Both the position numbers and the translations under genes were made by a program. From Rhizaria sp. SCN 62-66 (lineage: Eukaryota), in assembly GCA_001724265.1 (NCBI GenBank), contig MEDY01000120.1, positions 62,001-118,224 of the forward strand: a stretch of DNA of 56,224 nt, written 5' to 3'. Positions 4,234-56,224 of this stretch are shown here, piece by piece. The notes under the pieces are model-generated. The model was not told the DNA's origin. It did not search any database and saw only the letters and a program-made list of their open reading frames with translations. The number at the start of each line of letters is the position of its first letter. The first letter of the stretch is position 1.

Positions 4234-4813
4234 GCGAGCGAGCGAACTGTGAGGGCAGTGAGCGAATTGCGAGCGCAGTGAGTAGACGACCTCGCACCTG
4301 TTGGCTGTGACGGAGAGGGTGCGGACATGAGACTATTGAGCTATTTAGTGTGCCGAGGGCCTGTGCCAACTCGGCTGACTCTGCCATCATCAAGGACAAT
4401 TAGAGGATGCTACATACACAATCGTGAAGCAGACAATTCTTCAAGTCGACTCGAACTCCGAAATAGGATATGTGTTGAAAAATCCACCGATATTATGCAT
4501 CGTATGTTTCTTTTGCTGAATATTTTAAGTTGATTTGTGAATCTTCAAGTGGCTGGCGCTGGCTGCTGGCGTCTCAGCTTGGATTCTTTGATGGCCTGGT
4601 TGCCACATTCGATTGTGATAGATTTTGGTCGTCATTTGTCATGAGGTTATTTGCACAGATATTTGAAAGATATTATATTACAGTTCATTTTTTCATATGC
4701 CGAAGTAGCACCATGAAACGATAATATCAACCTTTCCAAATCCCTCTCACTCTCACGCACAGCCAGACCCGCGAGCCTTCGTCTTAGTTAGGCCACAGTT
4801 GTTGTCCCTGAAG

Positions 4814-5533
4814 ATGAGGCCAGCTGTGGTTTTTACGCCCCCGACGGCGCCATCTTGGCAGTACACAGGCACTACTTCCCCAAAGACCGGCAAGTTTCAT
4901 GGACATGGCACGCTTGTTTACCCATCGGGCGCCTTTTACGCCGGCTCCTTCTGCTAGGGCATGCGCAGCGGCTTCGGTCGTCTCAAGTCTGCTGGCGGCG
5001 ACGAATACGCGGGCACCTTTGCCAAAAACCTGTACCACGGCTTTGGCACGCTGCACTACGCCAACGGCGACGTCTACTGCGGCTCTTTTCGCGCGGGCCG
5101 GCGCCACGGGGCGGGTGTGTGCGTCACGGCCGACCTCGTCGAGCACGCCGGCTTCTGGCGCGACGACGTGCGCTGCGGCTTTGGCGTCGAGCAGGCCGTG
5201 CCGCTGGTGTCGGCTGCCCTGGCGATGCTGCGGCGCGGCGTCCGGCCCGCGGCGCAGCGCGACGACGAGCCGGACTCGGACCCCGACAAGTTCGACTCTG
5301 ACGCTGACGAGGACGACGGCGGCGAGAGTCGCCGTCGTGTCTCGGCGAGCGCCGGAAAGAGCAAAAACAAGGTAAAGGGCAAGGGGAGCAAGAGTATGGG
5401 GGGTAAAGGCACGAAGCATAAGATCAAACGCAAGGTCAAGAGCAAGGTCAAGACTAAGGGCAAAGGTAAGGGCAAAGCCAAGGCCAAGAGCAAGAGCACG
5501 GCCAAGCGCAGCACGTTCATTGTCAACGACGAA

Positions 5534-5568
<35 letters not shown>

Positions 5569-8500
5569 AAGCGACGCTCTGGAGGCCCCCCCTGCCCCGA
5601 CCCCGGCCGCGGCCGCCAAGTCTGCGCCCCTGCTGCGGCCGGGCTCGTGGGAGTTCCTGTGCAGCCGCGAGCGGTGCGCGCTGTCCCCGGCGCCCGTGGG
5701 CGTGCGTGGCCGCGCGGGGCTGTTTCTGGGCGGCCGCCTTACGAGCGGCGGCGCGGGGCTGGCCTGGGACGCCGAGACGGCCACCACGTTCGTGGGTTCG
5801 TGGACGGCCGCGGGGGAGCCGCTCGAGGGCACCCTGCGGACCTCGACGGCCTTCCAGCCCGTCTGCACCGCGGACACGCCCGCCTCGGCGTCTACGCGCG
5901 GCGCGGCGCCCCAGCTCTACACGGGCCGCTTTGCGGAGCGGCCGCGCGCGCCGGCGTTTGACGCGGGCGGTCCCGGCGTGTCGGCGCCGTTCGCGGCCTA
6001 CCCGCCCGCGCCGGCCGCCGTGATTGCCGCGGCGGCCGCGGGCGACCCCACCGCGACTGCGCTGGCCATGGCCGCGATCACGGGCTACGAGGGCAAGGTG
6101 CGTGTCGACGACCTGCAGCCGCACGAGCAGGGCCGAGGGCGTCTCCGCGGCGGCGGGCTCGTCGACGGCACCTGGCGCGCCGGCGCACCGCACGATGAGT
6201 GCGCGGCCGTGGGCGCGCTGGGCCGCGGCCGCTACGAGGGCCCCTTCGTCGGCGGCGTGCGGGATGGCGACGGCATCTGGGTCGACGCGCAGGGCGGCGT
6301 CGCCTTCGGCGGGCTCTTCCACGACGGCAGCGCCACACACGGCACACTCACACGGACCACGCTCTCGGGCGCCGACCGCGGCCGGCCCGGCGGCGCGCGC
6401 GACTGCACCGCCCTCTGCGGCCGCGCTGCCGGCACTGGCGCTGGTGCTGCCTCTGGCGCTGGCGCTGGCTGCGGCTGCGGGCGCGCGCTGGCGCGCATGC
6501 CGTGGTGGTGGACAGGCGCGGGCGTGCCGCGGCGCTGGCACAACCCCACATGGCGCTCTGCGCGCTCGGACCGGCTCGAGCAGCACTACTGGCGCCGGCA
6601 GGACACCGAGTACAAGACGCTGCGCGCGTACTAGCAGGCCTGGGACGCAGTGCGGTTGCGGAAAATCATGCGCCGTCCTTGCGACGTCGCCGTCAAGAGG
6701 GGACTGATGCCCGCGCCGGCCAAGATGCTGCCCGCCGCGGGGGTCGCCGAGGCCGCGGCCGCGGCTGATTACGTGCGGCGCGGCGCGCGCTTCAGCTACG
6801 AGGACGCCGAGGCGGGCGAAAGCGCGGCGCGGGCTGCCGAGATCGCGCGCGTCAAGGCCGTCATCGCGCGCACGGACTCCGAAATCGACGACATCTATTT
6901 CCGCAGCCGCAGGAAGGCCTCCTCACTGACGCCCCCGCGCGGCTGCGGGGCCTGGCGCTGGCGCCCGCGCGGTCCGCCGCTGCTGGTGCCGGCGCGCGCG
7001 GTGGACTTCGCATTTATGGCGCGGGCCGCGGCGTGCGCCACCGTGATCGCGCGCGCGGGCAACGAGGACGAGGGCAGCGGCGTCCCGCCGCCGCTGCCCG
7101 CGGCCGCCGCGCAGCACGCTGCCCCGCTGGACCTCGCCTCGCGCCGCGGGCTGGCTCTGCGGTACCCGGACCCCGCGCCGGACTCGGCCCTGACCGCGCC
7201 CGCGCAGAGCGCGCTGCGGGCGCGCGCGCGGCTGCCGCACGAGCCCGTGGGCGGCGCGCCCGTGGAGACGTACAACGGCTCCTTCTCGGTTGAGGAGCGC
7301 TACCACGACGACGAAGGCACGCTGCAGCTCGCCGGCTGCGTGCGCTACGACGGCGGCTTTGCGCACGGGCGCTTCGAAGGCCACGGCCGCCTCTCGGTGC
7401 TTGCGCCGGCCGCGCCGCCGGAGCGCGGCAGTACGGCCGCGCTCGACGACGAGCGTGCGAGCACGGAGTGGGCGGGCCGCTACGTGGGCGCCTTCGCGCG
7501 CGGACTACGCCACGGCCACGGATATTGGTGGCCCGCGCGCGCGGCCGTGCGCTATTGCGGCCAGTGGCGCCACGACCGGCCACACGGCGCGGGCATCGCC
7601 GTCGTCGCCTCTGGCGCCGAGGTGCGCGGCCACTGGCGCGGGGGCCGCCCGCCGCGCGATGCGGTTGTGACGCTGCCGTGCGGCGCCGAATACACGGGCA
7701 CGCTCGACCGGCTGTGGCGCGCCGCGGGCCGGGGGACGCTCTCACTGCGGCGGCCCGGCGCGGGCGGCGGCAGGGGCTCCGTCTACAGCGGCGACTTCCG
7801 CGGCGGGCTACCGCACGGCATCGGCACGCTGCGCCACGGCAGCGGGCTGCGCATCAGCGGCTTTTGGCGCGCGGGGCTTCCGCGCGGCCTCTGCGTCGTC
7901 GAGTCGCCGCGCGCGGCCCTCTACTTCGGCCAGTTGCGCTGGGGCCGGTGGTGCGGCCGCGGGCGCCTCTCCACGCCCCACGTCGCAGTTGCGGGCCGCT
8001 GGTCCGGCTGCGGCGAGCGCGGCGCGCGCTTCGGCCCGCGCTGGGCGCGCCGCGCCGCGTGCGGCCGCGGCGTCGCGCTCGGCCGCAACGGCGACTGCTA
8101 CGAGGGCGCGCTGCTGGGCGCGCTGCGGCACGGGCGCGGCGTTTTACGCACGGCAGCGGGCTACGTCTACAGCGGCCGCTGGCGCCGCGGCCGCTGGGAG
8201 GGCTGCGAGGGCGAGCTGACGCTGCCCGGCGGCCACAGGACTGTGCGCGGGCGCTGGCGCGGGCGTGAGATGCTCGACTGCGACACGGGCGTTGTGCTGT
8301 TTAAAGACGAAGGGCTGTTTGTGCCGCACGACCTTGCGCCAGACACAGATGATGCGGCGTCGCAGTCTAGCAACAACAAGAACAAAAAGAGCAACAATAA
8401 GAGCAATAACAAGAGCAAGAGCAGCAATTACAAGGGCAAGGACCAGAGCAATGCCGACCCCCAGGCTGTTGCGCCTGCTTCTGTTGCCTACCACGGCTAC

Positions 8501-11314
8501 GAGTGCGACTACGACAAGGCACCTTCCGGCGCCGCGCGCGCGGGGCCCGGCAGTCTGCACTTCGCTAACGGCGACGTGTTCACGGGCACCTTCCCGGCCG
8601 GGCTGCTTGAGGGCCAGGGCGAGTGCCGGTACGCGTCGGGCCGCCTCTCCAGCTTCCGCGGGCAGTTCGAGCGCGGGCAGCGCCACGGGTCCGGTGCCGA
8701 GACCGCGGCCGCGGGCGGCGTGCTGAGCGCGACGTGGGTGCGCGGGCGGCGCGAGGAGGGCGGCGCCTACGCGCGCTCGCCGGGGCCCGCGCCGCTGCGG
8801 CAGGCGCTCTCCTGCGACGACCCCGCTGACGCGGAGCTGCTGCGCGCGCGGCGGCAGGGCGCGGCGGAGCGCGGGCGGCGCGTGCAAGACAAGGCCACGG
8901 GCGCGTGGCACGACGAGGGCAAGGGCCAGGTCGTGCTGCCGGGCGGCGAGGTCTACGTGGGCGACTTCCGCGACGGGCGCGCGCACGGCGCGGGCACGCT
9001 CTCGCGCGACGGCGCGGTCGTGGGCAAGGCCGAGTGGCGGCGCGGGCGGCTGCACGGGCGCGGCTGGGTTACGGCCGCGGTCGGCGACCGCGCGCGCTTC
9101 AGCGGCGACTGGCGGCGCGGGCGCCCGCACGGCTCGGGCGAGTTTTCGTCCCCGCGCGGCGCCACCGAGGTTCTGCCCGCGGGCGCAGTCACGTACGTCG
9201 GCGCGGTTGCGCGCGGGCGCCCGCACGGGGCAGGCGTGTTGACGCTGCCGTTCGGGCCCACGTACCGCGGCCACTTCGTGCGCGGCGCGATGGCGGGCCA
9301 GGGCGCCGTGACCGCGCCCGAGGGCATGGACGTGACGCTCATGGCGCCGACGCTGTCGAGCGCCGCGTGGCATCGCGCGTGGGACGTCTTCGCGCTCATG
9401 ACCTTCGAGGCAAAGGGCGAAATGCGGCCGGCGGGCAGCTACGCCGGCCCCGCCGTCTCGCTCTGGGCCTGCGGCACGGGCTCGAGCGCGCTCAAGCAGC
9501 GCAACGGCTGCATTAACGTCTACACCGGCGAGTGGGCTGGCGGGCTGCGCCACGGCCGCGGGCGATGCGGCGTGACGTCGCCGCAGACGGGCTGCTGCAC
9601 CGGCTACACCGGCCGCTTCTCGGCCGGCGGGCGCCAGGGCCCGGGCATCATGGACGCCGAGACGCCTACGGGCACGATGGTGCACCGCGGCGAGTACGTG
9701 TGCGACAAGAGCTTTGGCCGCGGGCGCCGGTTCGTGCCCTGGCTTGGCGCCGCGCACTTTGGCCCCATGTGGGGCGAGGAGGTACGGACAGGGCGCGAAA
9801 AATATTGTCATGTGCTTCTGCCAATGCCAATTTCGAAGAAGTTTCGATGACATTCACGTATTGATTTCTATTAGAATTTTAACTTTCCATCAATGTTTAT
9901 TCAAATTAGACAAACTAAAGTCTAAGCGCGTTTTTTCCACGTAAACTCACACATTTCTTTTACATATCATATTATTATTTTGTGTCGTTTCGCTCTTCGC
10001 AATTTTTGTTGGCTACGACGCTTTTAGCAATTGCAAGGGCGCGCGATAATAGTTGGCGCGGACGGCGGATCCGGCATGGCGTCCGAGGCCGCCCTGGGCG
10101 AGTTGATGCAGCAGTTTATGGCGACCGGCGACCCGCGCGCGCGGCAGCAGCTAGAGCGGCTGAGCTCCGAGCAACACCGCGTGGCCCGCGCCAAGCCCGT
10201 GCCAGCGGGCCGCGGCATCGTCTTCGAGGGGCTCGTCGCTGACGGCGTCATGTGCGGCCAAGGCCGTCTGCTGCAGCTCGGCGGCACTGGCAGGGGCGCG
10301 GGCGCGGCCGCGGGCACGCTCACTGAGGCCAGCTTCATCGGCGGCGCCGTGGCCGAGGGCCGCGGCGTCGTAATTTCGCCCACCGGCGCCCGCCGTGAGG
10401 GCTCCTTTACCGACGGCGAGCTCCAGGGCGCGGGGCTCGAGGTCGACGCGCGCTGCGTGCGCGGCGCGGGCGCGTGGCGCGGCGGGGCCAAGCACGGGCC
10501 CTGGGTCTACACCGCGCCCGACGGCGTCGTTGCCACGACGAGCTACATCGGCGGCACGCGCGTGGGCGCGCACAGGCTCGTTGGCGTTGTGCCGCGCGCC
10601 GTTGCCGCGGCCGCGTTCGGCAAAGACTACTACAACAATATCACGAACGCACGCACAGCTTTGACAGCTTCTTCTACGTCCGCTCATGCAACTGCTGCTG
10701 CGAATGAGCCTATGACTGGTGCTGGTGCTCGTACCAATACCGTTTTTGGCGGCTCTGCTTCCGGCTCTGGCCCCAGCTCTAGCCTGAGTGCCGGTACCGC
10801 GGCGCGCAGCCCAGCGACTCGGTTCTCCGGCCCCTCTGCGGCCGCGCGCGTCATGTGCATGGTGATGCGCGAACACGCGTTGGACGCGACCCCGGTCCCC
10901 ACGCTGGACGGGCCCGCGGGCGCTTCCTTTGCGCCGCTCGTCTTTTCGGATGAAGTCCGGGTCGAGGCGCGCGCGCGCGCGCGGGCCCGCCGCGTCGCGC
11001 GCGCCGTCTGCCGCGCCGTGTGGGCCGCGGCGGCTGACTGCGGCGTGCCCGGCGCCGTCGCGGCGCTGGACGAGACGCTCTGGGGCTGGGTTGACACGCA
11101 GTACCCGCACCTCGGGCGCCCGAAGCAATCGCAGACGCAGACGCAGATGCAGCAGCAGCCGTTGGTGTTCGAGACGACCAAGTTGAGCAAGGCCCAGGCC
11201 GAGGCGGAGGCGCAGGCGGCCGCGGCGAAAGATCGCGCGACGGCTGCAGCCAAGGATGATGAAGACGCGGCGAAGCTCGGTGTGGCGCTACGTAAAATGC
11301 TTTGCATGTTCTAA
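4814..11314 (+). CDS. Giant MORN-repeat protein (~2,084 aa); contains in-frame TAGs at 4955-4957 and 6632-6634
   Basis: One frame from ATG 4814 to 9781 if TAG is read as sense, then a phase-0 intron 9782-10027 (GTACGG..TTTTAG) and exon 10028-11314. Many Y.G.(F/W)..G..HG.G repeats throughout. This joins track ORFs 4961-6634, 6650-9850 and 10031-11314. Stop TAA. A further upstream exon is possible (AG at 4761-4762). Confidence 0.8.
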
Positions 11315-26503: not shown

Positions 26504-28708
26504 GGCGAGTGCTACTAAGGCCGAAATGCACGGGATACAACACGAGAGCAGTGATTCACCAGGAATAATTTAATGAATAAAGAGGTTTAATAGAGCGAGT
26601 TATCATATACAAGAATTGCATTGAGAGACGGAGACTACAGCGCGTGGCAATGTTCCAAAGATTGGTGTAAAGTGTATTGCTTCGTCATCATCATCAGTGT
26701 CAGCGACAACGAGTGAGCGAAGGAGACATCAGAAAGGGACAGCAAACAGACGCCGGAAGCAGCGGCGGCCGCGGCAGCAATGGCAACGGCAACGCAGCAC
26801 AGCACGCACTGGGAGAGCGGGTGGTGTGTTGCGCACATGTCAACAGCAGCAGCGACACTGAGAGCAAACAAGCACGCACAATGCTGGTAATGCGATGATT
26901 GCATACTGGCGTTGTTACTGATCTTGTTGACGATTTTCACAAAATAAAGTGATAAAAAACGAAAGGACATTTTCTTTGTTGGTTGTTGATTTTGAATTTT
27001 TCTTTTGTTTTTTGGAGGTTTTGCGTGAGAGTTTGGGAGATTGATTGTTTGGTTACCGTAGTGGGTAGCTTTTGCGCGGTTGCCCCTGCGCCGGCCGCTC
27101 GGGACGGCAGCACGGCGCAAGGGCAGAGACGCGCGTGCATAAACAGACGCACGGGAAAAATACAGACACCCAACAATGTACACACACTTATACGCATAGA
27201 ATAACGAGAAAACGAATGAGGAAATGATAATAAGGGCGCTGCACTGCCCCCGCACTCCGCAAACACGCGCGCATATCCAGGCACGGCCGCGGACGGGACG
27301 GCGTACCAACGACAGCGAGCGCGAGGCTGCAGTGCGAGGTATCGATAGGCCGGGCGTTCGTGGCGGTGGCGGAGACGGCGGGTGTGGGTGGCAGAGGCAG
27401 CGACGGTCGTCAGTAATTAGGAAGAACAAAGAGAAAAGAAAAGAAAAGAACGATAGAACAGAAACGAGTGCACGCAATGCACACACAACCCGAGAGCGCA
27501 GCGCCACAGAACGCAGCAGAGTGACTGCTATTGCATTGCTGTTAACGTTGCTGGGAGTCGTGTGGCCGTGACAGGAGCAGTGCCATTGAGCGCAACGACA
27601 TGAGGAGCGACGTTTGCGCACACTCAGCTGTTCCGATGTTCCGATGTTCCGATGTGACGTCGCAACCACGCGAGCCACTGTAAGCAAGCGAACGATAGCG
27701 TCAGATTGCTGCGAGTGGTGTTGGTATTGTTGTTGTTGCTTTCGTTGCCGCAATGATGCGATCAGGCGGTCATGAGGGCCTGCGGTGTTGTGTGGTGAGT
27801 TATAACGTGGGATGGCGCTGGCGGCGGCCGGCCGTGACGACCGGGGTTCGCGCCGCGAAGCGTGTAAGGGCCTCGGTCCCCTACATCCACCGGTGCAGGT
27901 GGGGTCAGGGGGACGAGTCAGTCACGCGAGCGCGCCATACACACGTAACACACACACATACACATACACAGACGAACAAACAAGCAATCCGACAGTGAGG
28001 GGTCATCAGTGACCGGCCACTCACACTCTCTCAGTGTGGCGAGTGGCGCTGTGCGCGGGCTAGGCCGGTGTTGTAAGAGGCAGCACATTGCTGACAGTCA
28101 AAGCGGCCTAGCTTTAAGAGAACAAACACGCACACAGGCAGATACACACACAAAGGCACAGAGAGAGACGAAACACATCAGAAGTGCCACGAACAAACGA
28201 AGTCCAGTCAGGAGACCGCAGCTTGCGGAGACACACTGGACTCGACTTGTTGCATTGACGTATAAACAAATAAACATAAACAAATATACAACAACTGAGA
28301 TATGGTTATTATGGTAGTAATTAATTTACTAAGCAGAAAACGCTAACATTTACACAACAACAACAATTTCTAGAACAACAGAGAACGAGAAAAAGAGGTA
28401 ACTAGTAACGTTAAAGTAATCATACACACACTTCGAGTAACGAGCAGAGAGCAAAGGCAAAGCAAAGCAAAGCAGAGCCATGATAGCACGAAGCGCCTTT
28501 ACTTCCTTTCTCTCAGGTTACTACATCACATTCAGACACATACATACACACACTAACACGTGATCATATCATCATACGCATATCAGATTAATAATTTAAC
28601 AGAAAGAAAAAAACCAAACAGAAAAAGAAGAAGCAGCAAGAGCACTCACGAAACGACTTTCATATGAAAAAAACAGCTGTAAGTACCCCTAGACACAGTT
28701 CCTTAGAC

Positions 28709-31700
28709 TTACGCCATGTCGACGGGCATGCCCGCGATGGCGCTGAGCGTGGGCGCCATCACGGTCGTCGCCGCGTTGGCGTTGCAGTGGGCGGCGGTGG
28801 AGGGCGCTGCGAGCAGGTGGGTGCCGGCGGTGCCGGGGGCGGTGGCGGCCTCGCCCTCGGCCACGGCTTCTGCGGCGGCGGCGGCCACTGCGGCGGAGTC
28901 AATCGGCTCCAGCGCCTCCATCTCGGCCTCGGCGGCGGCGGCGATGGCGGCCGCAGCCTCGATCGCCTCCGTCTCGGCCGCGGCGGCCGCGGCGGCGGCA
29001 GCGGCCGTGTGCGCGGTGGCGGCGGCATTGGAGATGGAGAGCGTGCGGCGCAGGCGCGTTGGCCGGCGCTGGTTGGCGAAGTAGAGCGCGAGCGGGTGCG
29101 CCGACGCCTGTTCGAGGCCGAGCGCGCGCAGCACGGCGCCGCGCTCCTCAGCGGACGCCACGGCGGCGGCGGCCTCGGAGGCGGCGGGCGCGCCCACGGG
29201 CTCGGCGTCGGAGCCTTGCAGCACGAGCAGCGACTGCAGGCGCGAAAGCACGGACGCCACGGCCGCCTCGGCCGCTGACGCGAACTTGGACGACAGCGAG
29301 CCCGTCAGCGGGGGCGGGTTCGCAGCGGCCGACACGGACGCGGCGGCGGCGGCGATGGCGGCGGCGCGGTCCGCGGCCGAGAGGTTGGCGATCGCGTCCG
29401 ACATAGAGACGGCGCCCGAGGAGCCCGACAGAGCCAGGGGGTTCGCGCCCGCGGGGTGGCCGCCGTTGACGTTGCTGCCGTCGCCGCGGGAAGGGAGGAA
29501 GAAGGGCGTGGCGGACGAGTGGTACCCCGCGGCGGAGCCGCCGTGGCCGTGGCCGGGGAAGGGCCCCGTGACCGAGGCCGAGACGGGGATCCCGGGGCGG
29601 CCGCTGCCCGTGGTGGCGCCGCTCTGGCCGACGCCGACGCCAACGCCGTGGCCGACGCAGAGGCCGAGGCCGGAGAGCGGGGGGCGGGCCGTGGAGGCCG
29701 CGTTGACCGACTCGGGGGCCGGGGTGGACGAGGCCAGCGAGGAGCCGTCGGCGTTGGTGCCGTTGTTCATCGAGCCGTTGCCATGGGCGGCAGCGAACGC
29801 GGCGGCGCCGGTGCCCGCGCCGGCCGCGGCGGGGGGACCCTGCTGCTGGGCGAGAGCCATGGCCTTCGCCTTAGCACGAGCCTGGAGATAAGAGAAATCA
29901 AAGTAGATATGGGTTAGGTATGCGTCTTTAAGAATAAAAGTTGTACATATCAGTACAAATTAAAGTATTAAACACGCGCATAAAATATATTCCCAGTTAA
30001 CATTTGTTTCGCGGTGATATAATCTCTCTGTTGGCAGTACCTGAGCGATGTCGCGGGCCAGCACCTGGGCCTGGACCTGCGTGAGCGTGTGGCCGTGCGA
30101 GTGGCTCAGCCCGCCCTCGGAGCCGTGGAACGGGCTCGCCAGACCGTGGCCGTGGTCGTGGCTGTGACCGTGGGCGCAGACGGTGACGGAGCCCGAGCCC
30201 ACGATGGCGGCCGCTGCAGCAGCGGCGGCGGCGGAGATCGAGGCCGCGGTGTAGGGCGCCGCTGCGGGGGTGTTGGGGGCCGTGGCGAAGCCGCTGAGCG
30301 GCGCGGCGGCCACCGCAGCCGAGGGCACGATCGACCGCACGGGCTGGCCCGTCGCGCCGACAGGTGCAGTCGCCGCCGCAGCGGCGGGGGCGGCGGCGGC
30401 CACAGGGGTGGGCTCGGGGGCGGGGGCCGGGGGCGCGACGATGCCGTTATAGTGGACCTCGCAGAAGCCCGTGTCGTCGAAGCGCAGCGTGTAGAGCGGC
30501 ATGTTGGCCGCCAGCGCACCCAGCGACACGTTCACGTGCTGGTCGGCCAGCAGGTTCATGAACGGCAGGTAGGCCGCAGCTGCGTTCTTGGACAGGGGCA
30601 GGATGTCATCCTACGCAGATATATTGGGGGGATATATGACGATATAGATGAGTATCTTACAAACATTATTTAATATACAATTTTACGCGTAAATATATCA
30701 ATATTCCGTAAATCAGGCGTACCTGTCCGATGAACCACTCAGCCTGCTGCTTGCGGAGGTAGGCCGAGATCTGTTCGTGGTTGACGAAGATCTGGTTGCC
30801 CTGGATCGACGGCGGGATGAGCGGGATGCGCGTGAACGAGTGCACGTCGTTGACCAGCGACACGTTGGCGACGCCGCACTCCTCGTGCTGGCCCGCGAGC
30901 ACCACGTAGTCGCCCTCGGTTGCGCCGTCCCACATGGCGTAGAAGAAGCACCGCAGCGCGGTCAGCACCAGCTCGCGGCGCACCTTGTACGTCTCGGACT
31001 TGGTCAGCATGAAGCGCAGGTGGCCGCAGCCGATGTGCGCGGGATTCGTCAGGTGCTCAAGCATGCGCTCGCGCGCCGCGTTCGGCACCTGCATCAGGAA
31101 CGCGCTTGTGCCCACCTGTGGTAGAGTCCAGAAGATAAAAAGAGGAGATATAGAACATGAGATGGAATCATAAAAAGTTTAAACCTAAAGAACACTAACA
31201 AACATCTTACACTAAGGAGTTGCATCACCAAGATGCCAACAAATCCAAAAGCAGATTGAAATGAGACCTATGATTTACGTACGTGAGTCTGCGAGGGGGA
31301 GAAGACGCCCACGAGCTCCGGGTCCTTGCGGACGGCGTCGACGAGCTTGTCGAGACAGGCCTGGTCGGTGTGCATGTAGAAGCGGCCGAAGGCGTCGAGG
31401 CGGCGCTGGAACAGCACGGCGACGTCGGCGTCGGTCAGGTGGCGGTTCATGAGCTCCTCGGCGGCCGTGAGCGCGATGATGAACTCGCCCATGTCGCCGC
31501 CGGGCGTGCCGATAACGCCACAGTCATCGCGCCCGTCGATGCACGACATGCGCCCGTGGACCATGAAGGCCGCCATCTTGATCCACTGGATGCCCTCGCC
31601 ATTGCCGATGTGGTCCGAGATCTGCTGGAGAGACATGGTGCGGCGGCCGAAGCGGTCCTTGGGCGCGGGCGCCGTGAGCGCCTTCGAGTGCACGACGCCG

Positions 31701-33051
31701 CGCCGCGCCAGAATCGACGGGTCGCGCGAGGTCGAGAAGCCCATGAGCTTCCACGCGCGCATGCCGCCGGACATGACGGCGGCAAAGACGCGGCCGTGGG
31801 CCTTGAGCTCTGCGACGACCTCACGCGAGTCGCTGTCGTTCATGCAGACGATCGCGAGCAGCGCGTCGGCCGGGAAGGAGGAGATAATCTTGCCGATGTC
31901 CGTGCGCGGGAACCAGTTGATGCCTGGAGGGAGGGCGGAGTGTGCGCAGGTCAGGTGTGGAGTTTTGAGTGGGTCAAAAGAGATATGGGCAGGCACGGGG
32001 GGAGGGTGTGCGATAGGGGCAGAACAAGGGCGAGCGCCAATAATAAAGTGGCAAAAGGGAATAAAAGAAGGAAAGAGAACGAAAAAAGTGAGAATGAAAG
32101 TTCAAAGAGGACGGGAAAAGGGCGCACTGGTGGAATGCCAGGGAAAGAGTGTCGAGAATATTTGTTGGCGCAGGCATGTTCGGAAGTGAATACATCAGTT
32201 TAGGCGCATCGTAAGCGCAAAAAAGTGTGGGCACGTACCGGGAATGTACCCGACGGGACCGGTGAGCTCGTTTTCGAGGCGCACATCGATGATATGGACG
32301 GCGTGGCCGAGCTGTAAGTGTTGCGGACCAGGGTAGCGATGACGCGAGAGGTCAGCGGGGGTGTTGACCGACGGAGAGGAAAGAGCGAAAATAACGGCAT
32401 AAGTGAGTTTATGGCGCGGCACATGCAGTGAAACTTGTTAAAGAAATGCAGAATGTTCGTATTTAAACAAGAATATCCGTATGTTGCGGTGATAAAACGC
32501 GACAATGGTAGCTTTTTCTGGCGCGAGCCGTAACGTACCTGAGCCACGAAATCGCAGGCCACTGTGAACTTATGCGCCGCCAGGTGGGTGATCCAGTTGC
32601 GGCGGATATAGTATTCGGGGTGCCCGGGCGGCGGGAGGTGCGCGACATACTCTTGGAACTTTTTCTCGTCGTCCAGCATGAGCTGGGCCTTGAGCGTGTG
32701 GATGTGCTGCAGCGACATGGAGCCGGGGAGCGAAGGGGTAGCCGACTGGGGCTTCGAGAAAGGCACGGGGTCCATCGGCGACGAAGGATATAGGCCTGAT
32801 TTAGGATTAACTAACGGCTTTGCGAGGGAACTTGTCGTAAAACAATGCAAAGACACCGCGGAAAACGGCGTGGTTGCGTCGAAACGGGAAGTCGAGCGAA
32901 GGCCTCCGACCTGACTCGGCCCGGCTGACCAGCTCGGACCAATGGGCTGGTTGGGCCCAGTCAGACTCGACTGTGCTGAAGAGCTGAGAGAGAAGGGAGC
33001 GGGGGCCCCGGCGGGGACCCGGCCAGCGAGGCGAGAGAGACCTGCCCGCAT
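28709..33051 (-). CDS. Rhodanese domain + Cys/His/Cys metal-site (carbonic-anhydrase-like) domain fusion with Ala-rich tail
   Basis: Six phase-consistent exons: 33051-32539, 32311-32239, 31923-31283, 31115-30723, 30610-30041 and 29881-28709 (1,120 aa). Rhodanese motifs IIDVR..E...GYIPG, IVC and GGMRAW. Then SCIDGR..GTPGGD, YMHTD and HIGCGH. Stop TAA. Confidence 0.8.
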
Positions 33052-45813: not shown

Positions 45814-47675
45814 TCAAAAGTACCGCTTGTGGATGATGGTCTTGTCGGCCTCGAACTCGGCGCGCGTGACACGGCAGAGCTGGAACGTGGGCAGACTGGC
45901 GAACATGGACGCACCGACCCACGAGGCCCACTTGCGCGACATATCCAGCACCAGGTTCACCGGCACGCGGCCCTGCGTGCGCTTGACGAGCTCGCTCTTG
46001 ACGCGCAGCGGGAGTCCCGGCAGCAGCGAGCCGCCACCGACGACGACGACGCAGTTGTAGAGGTCCTCGCGCAGCGCGGGGTCGCACGCTGCGATCGCGC
46101 AATGGAGCATCTCCCCCGCGCCGTCAGCGGGCCGTGCCGCGGGGGTCGCCGCCAGCAGCTGCAGCGCGGGGGACCGGATCGGGATCGAGGCCAGTGACAG
46201 CGGCAGCGGGAAGTGGCGCATCGGGCCCCCGCCACTGCCGGAGCCGGGGGCGTTGCTGTTGTTGCCGCCGCCGCCGCGGACGCCGCGACCGCCGCCCCGG
46301 CCGCCGCCACGACGCGCGCTGCTGCCGCCGGTGTCGTCGCCATTGATGTCGCCGTTGCCGTCGCCCTCGTTGTCGTCGTCGTCGTCGCCGTCGCCGTTGC
46401 CGCCGCCGCGGGGACGGCTGCTGCTGCCGGCGGCGCCGTCGCCGTCGGCGTGCGCGGCCGCGACAGGGTATAGCGAGGACGGGTTGACGACGGCCCCCGT
46501 GGCGTCAGTCGCGGTGACCGCGCGCGCGGGCGAGAAGATGACCTCCGCGGCGGCCGCGCGCAGGGGCTCGTCGAGGCGCAGGATGGAGCCGTCGGGCAGC
46601 TCGAAGTCCGCCGCGCCCACGGTCACCGCCGCGGCCGCGGCCGCAATCGCCGCATCCGTCTCAGACACGCCCGCTGTCGCGCCGGAAGCGGAGGCGGAGA
46701 CGGAGGGCGTGGGGGAGCAGATGCAAACGCGCTCCTTGATGGTGCGTGCGAGGTCAAGCTGCGCGTGGGGGTTGTTTCCCAGCGCCGCAAGGACGCCCAC
46801 CTCGGCGAGCGCGGCCAGCAGCAGCTGCGTAATGTCGGCGCCCGCGACGCCGAGGTTCTGCGCCGCGTGGTTGAGCGCGAGGCCCTCGAAGACGGGCACG
46901 GCCGAGGTGACGCCCTCACCGATGTCCAGCACGACGCCCGTGGTACAGCCGGTAGAGAAGAGCGCGAGCACAGCAGAGTTGTACAGGTACAGGCTGGGCG
47001 GCGCAAGCCGCTTGAACAGGTGCTCGACGAGGTCGGAGCGCGTTTGCGGGCGCGAGTTAGGGGAGACGGCGATCATCAGCGGGTGCTGCGTGAGGCATGG
47101 TGATAGGTTGGGTTTGTTAGGGAAGATTGTGGTGATTGGGAAGTCAAGTGAGATAGAAAAAGACATAATTTTAAATTAAAAACTACCCCGTTACTATAAT
47201 ATATCAGAGTGATATCAGTTGAGTCAAATTGCAGCGAGAAACAGATCATAGAAAGAGAGATACTGGGGAAGAGCAGCTTTGTTAAGGAGAGTTGAGCGGA
47301 GAGGGGACGTACGAGAGCGGGCTCGCGAACGGCGAGCGAGACGCAGATAACGTGCTCGATAAGGAGCTCGAAGGCCTCCCAGTCCTTGATGACGCCCCGC
47401 TCGATGGGGCGGATGACTGCGAGCGTCTGCTTGCCCGTGGCCTCGAGGGCCAGACGCAGCGCGTCGAGCGCGGCGTAGCCGAAAACCCACTCCAGGTCCT
47501 TGAAGACGTGCGAGACTTCAGCGGGCACGGCCTGGTTGGCGAGATGAATGGCGATGGAAGGGATCACAACGCGCGGAATGTCTTCGCCGGCGAATCCGGC
47601 CTTGATGTAGCCGGATCCGGGGTCGATCACAATGACGTCGTGCTCCGCCAAAGTGGACATCGGGACGGGGTTCAT
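45814..47675 (-). CDS. Divergent actin-related protein
   Basis: Exons 47675-47313 and 47085-45814 (544 aa). Motifs IDPGSGYIKAGFAGE, PIERG.I.DW, TGVVLDIGEG, FELPDG, VVGGGSLLPG and SWVGAS. Alternative start at 47660. Stop TGA. Confidence 0.9.
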
Positions 47676-51600: not shown

Positions 51601-53751
51601 CGCGCGCTGCGGCCGCCATGCCCGCGCTGTCTGGCGCTGGTGACGCGCACCGTGCGCGCGCTGGCCCCGCGCCTGTGCCGCCGCAGCGGGCTGCACCTGC
51701 TGGGCTTCGACCTCGTCCGCTGCGCGCGCACCGGCGGCCTGACGCTCGTTGACCTGAACCACCTGCCGACGTTCGACGGCATGCCCGGCTTCCCCGCGGT
51801 GCTGGCCGCGACCGTGCTGCGCGCCTGGCACGAACACTGGACCGCGTGGCACAACCGCACCGTCTGCGCCACTGTCGCCATCCTGCTGCAGCAGCAACAA
51901 CAGCAACAGCAGCAACAGCAACAACTCGCTGTATGTCGCTTCAGTGCGTCTAAGGGGGTGCTTACCTGCGCAGCTCCAGTGCCGCACCCGCTTGCGCTTG
52001 CTCCTGCGGCGACCCGCAGCGGTCTGGCGGCGGCCGCGGCCGCGCTGCCGGCCTGGGTGACAGTGCTGGGCTACGGCTCGCTGCTGTCACCGGTCTCCAC
52101 ACGCGTCACGTGCCCCAACCTCAGGGGCTTTTCGGCCGCGCTGCTGCCCCCAACGGCCTACGCCGACACACCGCGCGACAGGAGCAGAAACGACGCTGAT
52201 GTGACACCATGCCCGCAGTCGCATTCGCAGTCCTCTGACTGGCTGATGACGTACGACCGCGTGTTCTCGCTGATCGCGATGTCCATCATCCGGTCCCGCA
52301 ACAAGGAGTTCACCGGTCGCCTCGCGCTGCTGTCCCCGTTGCCCGCGCGGGCGACGGCCGACTTGGTGCAACCGCAGCCGCTGCAGAGCGCCGCACAGCC
52401 GCAGACTGCCCCCGCCTCGACTGCGGCAACAGCGGCAACAGCTGCGCCAGCAGCGCCAGCAGTAGCAGCAGCAGCAGCGGCGGCAACTCTGCCGGCGGCA
52501 ACTGCGGCTTCGGTGACCGAGACGCCTTCGTGGTGGTGCAACGACTGGGACGACCGCAACATCGCCGCCGTGGGCGTCGCGCCGCGGCTATACAGGCGCA
52601 ACCACACTTGCTGTCACGGTTCGCTGAGCGACTCGCAGCTCCAGCACAGTGTGCTGGTGTCTGCATTCCAGCTTTCCCGCGAGGACTTCGTGGCGTACCT
52701 CAGGCGCGAGCAGCGGTACGAGTTCACCACGGCCACGGCCACGCTTGTCGACGCGACGGTGCTGCGCCAGTTCAGCGCGGGCGCGCCGCTGACCGCGCTG
52801 TCCCCACAGCAGTCGCCGTCGCAGTCAGAGGCACAGTTTGCGGCGCCGGTGCAGACAGCGGACGAATGTGAGGCCGCCGCGGCCGCTGCGGCGACATCGG
52901 AGACAGAGAGCGGTGTGAGCTTTGCTGACAAGAGCCTTGCCGACGTGCTTGCTGCGACAACGCTGCCGCAGCGCGTCATGCGCGTTGCTGCGGCCGTCGC
53001 TGCCGCCAACGCCGCCAACAGCTGCTACACGAACGCTCAGAGTCTGCGCTCGCAGGCTTATTGCCCAGTAACCGTGACTGGCGTGATCTGCGTCGGCTCG
53101 ACCGAGCTGCGGTACTGGACCGAAAAAATGGCGAGCGCCGTGCACCACTTCGACTCAGTGAGTCGCGACATCGCCGCGCCGCTGTGGCAGTGGGGCTCGG
53201 AGAGCGACCGGGCCTCTGGGCTGCTCGACACCACCGCACCTACGACGACAGAAACAACGGGAATGATAGGCACGACTGGCACGAACGCCAAGGACGGCAG
53301 TGGCAACATCGTCAGCGCGACTGCGAGTACGGCCGACAGCTGCCAGTGCCGGTGCGGCAGCGGCTGCCGCTGCAACTTCAGCGGCCACTGCCACCCCCGC
53401 CAGACACTGTCGTCGACCGAGCTTCGACCCGGCAAGCGGTACTTGCAGTTCTGCCTCCGGGCCTCGTACGAGCTCGCCGGTCGGTGGGGCTTCGCCAACT
53501 TCCTCCACACGACGAGGCTTGCAGACGGGCGCGCGGTGCCGCCGCCGCCGCTGCCGCTGCCGCTGCCGCCGCTGTCTGATGAGGTTGCGGCTCCTGTGAC
53601 CGCGACTGCGACTGAGACTGATGCTGGGTCGGAGACACTTGTGGAGGCGGGATACTGCGGCGCGACGACGCTGGCGCAGTACATCGCGGAAGGCCGGGAG
53701 GGCGACTACGGGCTTAAGGCGGTCAAGGCGCTGCGGTTTAAGTACATGTGA
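48172..53751 (+). CDS. Inositol-trisphosphate 5/6-kinase (ITPK1-type ATP-grasp) fused to a gamma-glutamylcyclotransferase-like domain
   Basis: ITPK motifs in order: PVIVK..VASG..DSH.M, H.G.LFKVY, R.S, GL.LLGFD, VDLNHLP.F.GMP. C-terminal VLGYGSLLS, YDRVF, RE..Y, YL..C, FL.TT.LADG and TTL..Y. Single 1,859-aa ORF. Stop TGA. Confidence 0.8.
48471..48515 (+). repeat. Imperfect (TCTAGC)n hexamer microsatellite encoding poly-Ser
   Basis: Directly visible tandem TCTAGC units within the ITPK ORF. Confidence 0.8.
49522..49593 (+). repeat. Four imperfect 18-bp in-frame tandem units (ETxxHx)
   Basis: GAGACTnnnnnnCACnnn x4, encoding ETLAHS-ETMAHG-ETVVHA-ETVSHA. Confidence 0.85.
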
Positions 53752-54191
53752 TTAACTGTGGAGAGAGCAAGATATGAGTTTTGGAGCTTACTAGTTAAGC
53801 GACATTAAAATACATATTTTATATAACATGAATAAAACATGATTTTAAAGACCTTGAAAACACGTTAAGCAAAGTTGACATGCTTGATGCAAGAATTCGC
53901 TGATCTGATACAAAAATTTGAGATCAAGATTCGTATAAATACGAGAGGACCACACCAATACATTGCTCCAGTTTAGCTCTAAGAGTATTTTTATTAGGCA
54001 CATTTGCTTGAGAATTGAGATTATATTCATATCTGCTGCAGTCAGGCACTTCTTCAACATGGCGTCCGCAGCTTGGCGTGGGCGATGGGAGGGGGACTTT
54101 CTGTCAAGCTTATCGATCGCTATACGCTTTCCCCAGATACACAGGTTATGTGTTATAATACCTTATGAAGTGTTGTATGTTCTAGTATAAT

Positions 54192-56224
54192 ATGTTTATC
54201 TACAAGAACAATGATTTATCCACAATAGACTCACTCAAGCTGATCGATCGCGATACGCTTTCCTTCTTTCATTCCCCAGGTTTGAACACCATTTCTCTTC
54301 AACAGAGCTCACCATGTAACACGAACTTCAGCTCGCGGAGGGATCGCGAGCTTCTCCGAGTTCACACAGCGATTAGTCGCATTGCAGCTTTGGACACGGA
54401 CCTGGCCGCACTCATTGAGCTCGATGAGGCGTATTGTGACAAGTCGCTCTTCGCAGTGCTCTGCGAGAGCGGGATCGTTCCGTTGCTTCTACGGTCCCTC
54501 GTGCTTCCCAGCAACTCAAGTAGCGTCGATAATAGCGCGGTTACTGCCCGAATTTTTACCCTTGTAGCCATGTTCAAAGCTATGCTCCGTCATGATGGTG
54601 GCCTAGAGCTTCTACGTGACTCCCGTGCTTTAGAGAGCCTGATTGCTGTGATACCACATCTCCAGACCGACCGCGAGCTGGCTCGTCTGATCGAGGTTGC
54701 AACCTCTCTTTCAATTAATTCGACCATCCCAACGCCCACCAGGCTTGCTGTGCTGGCGCAGGTGCAGGCGCATATGCGCGCTAAAGAGCAACGAGAACGC
54801 CAGTCTCCACAGCAGACGAGGACGGAAGAACAGTACGAAGAAGATGACTACTATTACTACTCTCTGAGTGGATTGATCAATGATATTCTTTCTCCAAGTA
54901 AGGAAATAATCTACACTTCTGATGCGCCCCGCATTTTGTACGCGAACGTCTCGACGCTTGTCCCGCTGCTGCGCAGTGTGATTCGGCGTCATGTACTCGC
55001 CAGTAAGTCTCCTCGACTATAGTTCGAACACGTCCCTATATATGACGCATTGTGCAGCGTGTACAAATGCGGCTACATCGCTGGCAGCAACGATGATGGC
55101 AGTGGTCAATCCGACAACAGCAGCGGAAATAGCAACGTCCCAATAGACGAACAATGCCGACGTGACTTTGCTGACTTTGTGGCTTGTGAGGATTTTGAGC
55201 CCCTGCTGCTGTCCGATCTGACTGACTGGTCGTATCTCCATACTATGTGCGAATATCTGCCTTTGTTTGACGACGAAATCTTTACACGCGTATTTACAAA
55301 ACAGCGTATTGAGAGCATTATTACGGATTTTGAAACGACGCAATTTCCTTCGACTGGTCATCTGTCGACGTTTATGAAAATTTCTGCGCAATTGGCCATC
55401 CGATCCCCGATGTTTGCGCAGCGAATCTCCTTTGTAACATGCTTTGGGGAAATTCGGAAGTTATATGATGAAATGTTTAGCCTCCACGACTATATAAATC
55501 ATTGGGAAATGCTCAATAATACTGCCACTGTGTTGGATAGACATTTGCGCGCTGCCTCTGATGTGACGCTCACAGCGCAGCAGCTGCTGGAGAGTAACGT
55601 CGTGCCGCTTTGCTGCACATTATTGCGACATTTTGTTTTGGCAAGGTGGGAGCTAGTAGAGCAGACATCCCATCCGAGCTTCATACCTATCGCGCTTCTT
55701 CTGCGCGTGCTGCGCGTGATGATGAATACCCGTGACACTTCACCTGACTTTGCACTGCTTGACCGCGAGGGTGAGCCGCGGAATCCCTTCGTAACACAGT
55801 TTGTCCGAAACCATGGAGTGCGATTGCTGGAGACGCTGCGCGGTGGGGACGACTGTTCAAACATTGCTGGAGGTTGCGAGGTGCTGCAGGAGCTTTTGCA
55901 AATGCACACGTTGCTTGTGGGTATGGCCATAATCCCGCCTGGCACAGCCGCAACAAGGTCGCCTGACGCACCAACTCTGCAGAAAAACTGGCAAAAGACA
56001 TTTGACGCGCACATTGCCAGCGTCTTAAAGAAGAGCGGCTACCCACAGCGAGTCAAGTCCGGCCGCCGCACCGCCGCATCATCATCCATCGGACCCCCGC
56101 CCGTTGCTGCGCCCAAACCGGGAGCAAACACAACATGCGCACAGTCAGCCGCTGTGCGCACGCAGAGAATTAACGCGCCAGGTGAGCTGTCTGCTGCTAC
56201 TCTGACTTTGATGCAGAAAATGGC
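54192..56224 (+). CDS. Partial hypothetical helical-repeat (ARM/HEAT-like) protein; in-frame TAG at 55020-55022; 5' end uncertain, 3' end outside window
   Basis: The frame of ORF 54192-55022 continues after the TAG for about 400 stop-free codons to the window end (FEHVPIYDAL...LMQKM). ARM-like phrases occur on both sides (LCESGIVPLLLRSL; LLESNVVPLCCTLL). The true start and any 5' introns are unresolved. Confidence 0.65.

Follow-up and report, generated by a model that had tools for sequence, protein, structure and literature searches.

Only a handful of lineages are known in which UAG has been reassigned while UAA is kept as a stop, going by the available portions of PMC5304391 and PMC11687900, and each additional UAG-sense code tests ideas on how codes change. 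The nuclear code of the rhizarian exLh reads UAG as leucine and uses UAA and UGA as stops, all 384 in-frame stops being UAG and all 71 terminators UAA or UGA in the part of the report available (PMC5304391). The same partial account gives UAG as glutamine in Iotanema spirale, with UAA as the main stop. According to the discussion of PMC11687900 (available part), Protocruzia tuzeti also reads UAG as glutamine, several phyllopharyngean ciliates read it as glutamine, leucine or others, and the green alga Scotinosphaera reads UAG as serine with UAA kept as a stop. A stop codon is likewise passed, and a longer product made, in programmed stop-codon read-through.

Here we describe a 56,224-nucleotide stretch of DNA (the window) whose protein-coding genes resemble those of exLh in that the in-frame stops are exclusively UAG and the terminators exclusively UAA or UGA, and in that the source is uncultured and represented in mixed sequence data. 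The argument has the same form as the one made for exLh, on far fewer sites: exLh has 384 UAGs in 71 genes, whereas the window has three in about 15 genes. exLh lives in an insect, whereas the organism of the window occurs in bioreactor and wastewater metagenomes (both comparisons limited to the available text on exLh). In Iotanema spirale, Protocruzia and the phyllopharyngeans, as far as the available accounts go, UAG alone is reassigned and UAA is still a stop, as appears to be the case here; phyllopharyngean genomes, however, are 27-54% GC with UAG in 78-91% of genes (PMC11687900, available part), whereas the exons of the window have a GC3 of about 0.9 and rarely contain TAG. In contrast to programmed read-through, the stops lie internal to conserved coding sequence, in several genes and their relatives, with no common downstream context. 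Our data suggest that in this nuclear code UAG is likely a sense codon and UAA and UGA the stops, which would make it a probable addition to the known class of UAG-sense nuclear codes. If UAG is recoded, the very GC-rich coding sequence, with TAG still rare and TAA a common terminator, is unusual and looks like an early stage of reassignment. A literature search of limited coverage for UAG-sense codes in activated sludge or in eukaryotic metagenome bins found none.

Gene content and introns of the window

The window contains no N and alternates strongly in composition, with exons of 60-78% GC (GC3 up to 0.98) separated by spacers and interrupted by introns of approximately 35-45% GC. Genes lie on both strands, and the Pfam matches are eukaryotic: a 3-hydroxyisobutyrate-dehydrogenase-type protein (HIBDH), an E2 ubiquitin-conjugating enzyme, a ZIP transporter, a FYVE protein, an actin-related protein (Arp) and an inositol-phosphate-kinase-like protein. 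Four introns were recognized, all of spliceosomal type, AT-rich, about 110-230 nt long, starting with GTAC(G/T) and ending with YAG:

47086-47310, minus strand: intron of the Arp gene, approximately 225 nt, GTACGT...CGCAG
29882-30040, minus strand: AT-rich intron of 159 nt, GTACTG...CAG, containing TAA 29960
about 30614-30720, minus strand: AT-rich intron with GTAC start and YAG end
about 31120-31282, minus strand: AT-rich intron with GTAC start and YAG end
45814-47674, minus strand: Arp gene, with an upstream exon from ATG 47674 to about 47311

Three of the four introns belong to one minus-strand gene (28709-32101) and start with GTACTG, GTACGT and GTACGC. Because its length is a multiple of three, the 159-nt intron mimics an in-frame TAA (29960); TAG 30611 is the 3' splice site of another intron. 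The upstream exon of the Arp gene is separate from the open reading frame (ORF), which is why Pfam's actin profile matches the ORF only from position 92 onwards; the database protein for this gene (P0005) lacks that exon and begins at an internal methionine. Searches with the Arp protein returned metagenome proteins only, the best relative being 64% identical, and bioreactor and wastewater metagenome runs contain the stretch 4300-9900. The best explanation is that the window derives from an uncultured eukaryote whose exons are GC-rich and whose introns and spacers are AT-rich. A giant-virus origin was considered in passing and set aside, there being no viral hallmark among the Pfam matches and spliceosomal-type introns being present (giant-virus codes are treated in PMC13524828, of which part was available). 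A scan of the window and of the metagenome loci L002-L004 described below against Rfam at the gathering threshold gave no matches.

Between 26000 and 28700 the AT skew is strong (about 0.2) at a GC content of 0.52. An ORF of 428 codons ended by TAG lies within this region (26635-27921, minus strand); since its translation is of low complexity it was not counted as a gene, and it probably is not one.

Two TAG codons in a MORN-repeat gene

MORN-repeat proteins (PF02493) carry 23-residue repeats of the form Y-x-G-x-[WF]-x-x-G-x-x-x-G-x-G. The features that concern us at the 5' side of the window are as follows:

4814..9850, plus strand: MORN-repeat gene, 1,678 codons from ATG 4814 to TGA 9848-9850, with two in-frame TAGs
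4889..4933, plus strand: MORN repeat preceding the TAG, matching positions 8-22 of the profile; 18.8 bits with our own HMM; in Pfam, residues 26-39 and positions 8-21
4937..5005, plus strand: TAG-bearing MORN repeat YAGSFC-TAG-GMRSGFGRLKSAGGDE, 23 residues; 13.0 bits with our own HMM, positions 1-22
4955..4957, plus strand: in-frame TAG number 1, at position 7 of the 23-residue repeat
4961..4963, plus strand: ATG downstream of the TAG (TAG GGC ATG), where translation could start instead if TAG 4955 is a stop
5006..5188, plus strand: three further MORN repeats in register; 31.2, 19.0 and 12.7 bits with our own HMM
6632..6634, plus strand: in-frame TAG number 2, in a GC-rich exon with no spacer

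A sequence-only reading of this DNA had proposed that the frame opened by ATG 4814 carries a TAG inside a MORN repeat, and both translation and profile searches bear this out. The frame reads MRPAVVFTPPTAPSWQYTGTTSPKTGKFHGHGTLVYPSGAFYAGSFC up to TAG 4955-4957, which follows 47 codons, and continues beyond it as GMRSGFGRLKSAGGDEYAGTF, starting with GMRSGFG. With the Pfam profile (gathering score 22.5 bits) the upstream piece alone (4814-4954) falls short, at 19.1 bits (E 0.0011), and the TAG-bearing repeat alone scores 14.7 bits, aligned to positions 1-22 of the 23 in the profile. When the TAG is written as X, 4814-5005 passes the cut-off in two stretches, at 28.0 bits (E 1.7e-6), so that the read-through translation does score as MORN and the match spans the TAG; 4814-5188 reaches 75.2 bits in five stretches and the entire read-through product 155.9 bits (3.6e-47), again above the cut-off. 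An HMM of our own, for which 68 MORN repeats were taken from unrelated proteins in the database, places five repeats in the TAG frame (4889-4933, 4937-5002 across the TAG, 5006-5074, 5075-5134 and 5150-5188), the other five frames giving no MORN repeat and all scoring below 0 bits. With this HMM the upstream peptide alone scores 22.9 bits, a value reached by none of 200 shuffles (maximum 7.2). The TAG was also said to occupy a variable position with the repeat spacing preserved, and it does: position 7 is N, D, K or A in our HMM, and because the repeats 4937-5005 and 5006-5074 are exactly 23 residues each, the register is kept across the TAG. The upstream repeat is indeed absent from the track of standard-code ORFs, in which the ORF begins only at 4958.

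Under the standard code the frame of ATG 4814 contains two directly adjoining ORFs, 4958-6634 and 6635-9850, which become one only when TAG is read through. In all 300-nt windows from 4814 to 9614 GC content peaks at the third codon position, and GC3 stays at 0.8-0.97 from about 4960 to 9800. The 50 codons that precede TAG 6632 have a GC3 of 0.94 and the 50 that follow it one of 0.86, and the AT-rich spacer that marks every true gene boundary in the window (about 44% GC) is absent there; the frame then stays open for 1,071 codons. At the 5' end, GC3 of 4814-4954 is 0.62, between the non-coding level (GC 0.44 in 4300-4813) and the downstream value of at least 0.80, and ATG 4814 has A at -3. If UAG is recoded, the MORN gene would be a single ORF running from ATG 4814 to TGA 9850, and TAG 4955 would be a rare but otherwise unremarkable sense codon, placed where the second of the MORN repeats is variable.

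The best database matches are generic MORN proteins with 32-43% identity over the repeats; searches with the N-terminus at near and shorter lengths gave generic MORN proteins only, with no orthologue found, and a metagenome scan with the MORN protein gave 590 pattern matches, none of them confirmed. Unlike known MORN proteins, the product contains in addition extended tracts that are Lys-rich, acidic or Asn/Lys/Ser-rich. These low-complexity tracts (5330-5570 and about 8480-8560, plus strand; Lys/Gly-rich, (Asp/Glu)n and later Asn/Lys/Ser-rich) coincide with local dips in GC3, and many unrelated metagenome contigs pile up there.

Sequence from other data sets agrees with the window at both TAGs. 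Contigs of X2 and X3 cover 4300-5555 with no differences, and a further one (6269-6655) covers TAG 6632, also with none; the figures for these two sets are identical, so that a single data set may have been deposited under both names, and both lie close to the possible source of the window. A contig from another study (X4) covers 4300-5233 and keeps the TAG, with two differences (5089 and 5116), both synonymous; it is counted as DNA-level support only, the kind of library not being known, and the X4 differences in all (two synonymous and two non-synonymous) are uninformative. With the TAG carried unchanged by these contigs, the base at 4955 is real and does not stem from an assembly error. Poly(A) RNA contigs (X5) lie at 5077-5343, 6301-6475, 6714-6977, 7273-7516, 8512-8709, 8788-8940 and 9541-9730; among those listed none lies upstream of 5077 and none bridges 4955 or 6632, and they neither support nor refute read-through.

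Splicing does not explain the TAG any better. A short intron at 4916-4968 was rejected: it would be 53 nt long, is not AT-rich, lacks the GTAC start and would break the repeat. Just 5' of ATG 4814 there is a pyrimidine-rich tract ending CACGCACAG (4740-4762, plus strand) that is like the 3' splice sites of the window's own introns, so that a further exon, or a spliced leader region, may precede the MORN gene as drawn here. Under the standard code the frame of ATG 4814 is open back to 4709.

The next gene 3' of the MORN gene has a weak match of its own:

10028-11314, plus strand: gene with a MORN match of 20.7 bits, below the cut-off

Upstream of this gene its frame extends into AT-rich sequence, which is taken to be non-coding and has a TAG (10025-10027) 34 codons in.

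A third TAG and its metagenomic relatives

The remaining exonic TAG of the window lies near its 3' end, in a conserved gene without a family name:

54192..56222, plus strand: conserved gene P0012, running off the window, with one TAG
55020..55022, plus strand: in-frame TAG number 3, residue 277 of P0012, joining ORFs 54186-55022 and 55023-56222

A HMMER search with the P0012 protein (X at residue 277) found 39 homologues, of which 19 have one best match that runs across residue 277; an alignment of 20 sequences (A1) is continuous across the TAG. The codon falls in a linker that is short and variable and is flanked by the conserved motifs VPLLRxIIRRH and YxAL. In the 78% identical P0013, which shares VLASKS just upstream, the frame is open at this position. 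At least 400 codons remain open after 55020, at about 50% GC, and GC3 of the gene is only 0.55, far below that of its neighbours. The family comprises proteins of about 700-880 residues (39 cluster representatives, all metagenomic, without a Pfam match), and in an atlas search the only leads, to armadillo-like families (DUF3689, 0.78), were below threshold. Introns were considered at this site too. The only in-frame GT..AG pairs would remove 30 nt (54993-55022), or 51 or 81 nt with a GTCTCC start, and were rejected because VLASKS or the conserved Y..AL motif would be deleted; GTAAGT 55003 as an intron start was rejected too, as it gives 55- or 85-nt introns that shift the frame into an early stop (read by eye).

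Scanning metagenomes with a reduced alignment of the P0012 family yielded four loci. One (L001), on a separate metagenome contig, is identical to window 52569-55638, TAG 55020 included, and the other three (L002-L004) encode homologues at 28-31% identity, which may come from other species or be paralogous members of one multi-copy family. Each of these three carries in-frame TAG inside well-aligned coding sequence:

L002, position 482: one in-frame TAG
L003, position 1796: one in-frame TAG
L004, positions 3087 and 3099: two in-frame TAGs

There is no TAA, TGA or frameshift within the 412-658 codons of each of these three genes. Scans of genome and viral contigs with a second alignment (A2) and with the Arp protein found nothing. 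The sequence-only reading had ranked 4955 as the strongest single site for recoding; taken alone it is not, with an ATG two codons downstream, a GC3 of only 0.62 upstream and no orthologue of the N-terminus found. Site 55020 has the best comparative support. Recoding at 4955 is nevertheless the best-supported reading of that site, with most of the support coming from elsewhere in the window and from the related loci.

Stop codon usage and alternative explanations

All seven in-frame stops are TAG, spread over five genes (MORN gene 2, P0012 1, L002 1, L003 1, L004 2), and five of the seven have homologue support on both sides; the two in the MORN gene are without an orthologue. Three of them are the exonic in-frame stops of the window (4955, 6632 and 55020). 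The other in-frame stops found there, TAA 29960 and TAG 30611, are both intronic, and no in-frame TAA or TGA occurs in the exons of 14 window ORFs or in the L002-L004 genes. The same 14 ORFs end in TGA (8) or TAA (6) and none in TAG, a small sample in which some ends lack a homologue and from which the TAG-ended ORF 26635-27921 was left out. TAA as a further sense codon was rejected, TAA 29960 being intronic and the HIBDH domain ending 14 residues before its TAA. At none of the three exonic TAGs does an intron fit that matches the window's own AT-rich GTAC...YAG introns, and 4955 and 6632 lie in GC-rich sequence. TAG is rare, with three in roughly 15,000 window codons and about 15 genes; there is none in five genes with Pfam domains (HIBDH, E2, ZIP, Arp, FYVE) and none in the three largest ORFs (3,308, 1,907 and 1,878 codons). 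Reading UAG as sense would call for a tRNA with anticodon CUA and for an eRF1 that has lost, or is weakened in, UAG recognition; tRNA scans of the window and L001-L004 gave no genes.

The codons could instead be nonsense alleles or young pseudogenes in which TAG is a normal stop and predominates as the commonest nonsense outcome in GC-rich codons, an explanation we regard as unlikely. TAG is expected to make up 0.46-0.62 of random nonsense point mutations in these GC-rich genes, and the probability of seven out of seven under this model is about 0.02 (arithmetic from the 46-62% share), which is suggestive but not overwhelming. The TAGs are also rare, sit at variable positions and are absent from domain-bearing housekeeping genes; the favoured residue, serine, can be encoded by TCG, a single substitution away from TAG; and the P0012 family, with its 39 cluster representatives, may be multi-copy. 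Yet the five separate genes that carry the seven stops have neither a frameshift nor any TAA or TGA, their frames remain open far beyond the stops (at least 400 codons after 55020 and 1,071 after 6632), TAG ends none of the 14 ORFs, TAG 4955 is kept in the X4 strain that differs at four other sites, and poly(A) RNA contigs lie downstream of both TAGs of the MORN gene. This biological pattern carries more weight than the probability of seven in seven in judging the pseudogene model. Because an ATG lies two codons downstream, a truncated protein starting at 4961 is possible on the evidence of site 4955 by itself, with the MORN-like sequence before it an untranslated relic in the 5' leader; the lower GC3 upstream (0.62 against 0.80 downstream), the failure of our searches to find an orthologue of the N-terminus and the lack of a listed X5 contig upstream of 5077 would fit such a start. 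We nonetheless find it improbable, as the upstream peptide is in-frame and in-register MORN sequence (22.9 bits, unmatched in 200 shuffles), ATG 4814 has the A at -3, and a start at 4961 leaves both 6632 and 55020 unexplained.

Least probable of all, and in our judgement very much so, is an unchanged code in which selected UAGs are passed by leaky termination (near-cognate read-through) or changed to a sense codon by RNA editing. Read-through of low efficiency would tolerate the low frequency and variable positions of TAG, and among the RNA contigs listed none covers a TAG. However, the seven TAGs have no read-through context in common, being followed by G, C, T, G, G, A and G, respectively; the next codons are unrelated as well. 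Moreover, each product needs its downstream part with the conserved domains, and the RNA contigs that overlap the MORN gene differ from the window only where X4 also differs.

Which amino acid UAG may encode

With UAG as a sense codon the likely reading, the residue it specifies was approached through the alignment columns occupied by the TAGs. All seven lie in variable columns, and for this reason no conserved residue pins the meaning of UAG; position 7 of the MORN repeat adds nothing on this point. After realignment of 47 homologues and the four read-through sequences (four same-gene proteins were dropped) the residues at the five columns were:

Window, 55020: S2, E2
L002: D10, S6, V2, others
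L003: D8, S7, G6, N5, others
L004, first TAG: S14, D5, P4, Y4, others
L004, second TAG: R1, D1, S1

Log-odds against background, summed over these five variable columns, are +7.6 bits for serine, +5.9 for aspartate and +1.6 for tyrosine, the rest being negative. The serine score is reached by 0.1% of random sets of five variable columns, and the loops in question align uncertainly. Serine is thus weakly favoured as the UAG residue from these columns. Glutamate is disfavoured (-6.9 bits), as is glutamine (-6.6 bits), the residue given for UAG in Iotanema spirale and Protocruzia in the available accounts; leucine, given for exLh in the part of its report available, has the lowest of the three scores (-8.7 bits). 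An ancestral serine fits the nonsense model too, because TCG is one step from TAG.

If this weak signal from five variable columns is real, the assignment would be that of Scotinosphaera as the available text describes it, although the window shows nothing pointing to a green alga. It is conceivable, though we think the odds are against it, that this is a eukaryote common in wastewater reactors in which UAG is read as serine by a tRNA-Ser(CUA), with exons at about 90% GC3 and UAA as close to half of the terminators. Were this so, it would be a second nuclear UAG-to-Ser code, going by the available part of PMC11687900, and the captured stop codon would be one favoured by GC pressure rather than a disfavoured one.

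Gene callers split genes at TAG, and the database proteins of the lineage are therefore truncated: P0022, P0025/P0073 and P0037 are the genes of L003, L002 and L004, respectively, cut at their TAGs. The first MORN repeat of the window was missed by the ORF track because of the same splitting.
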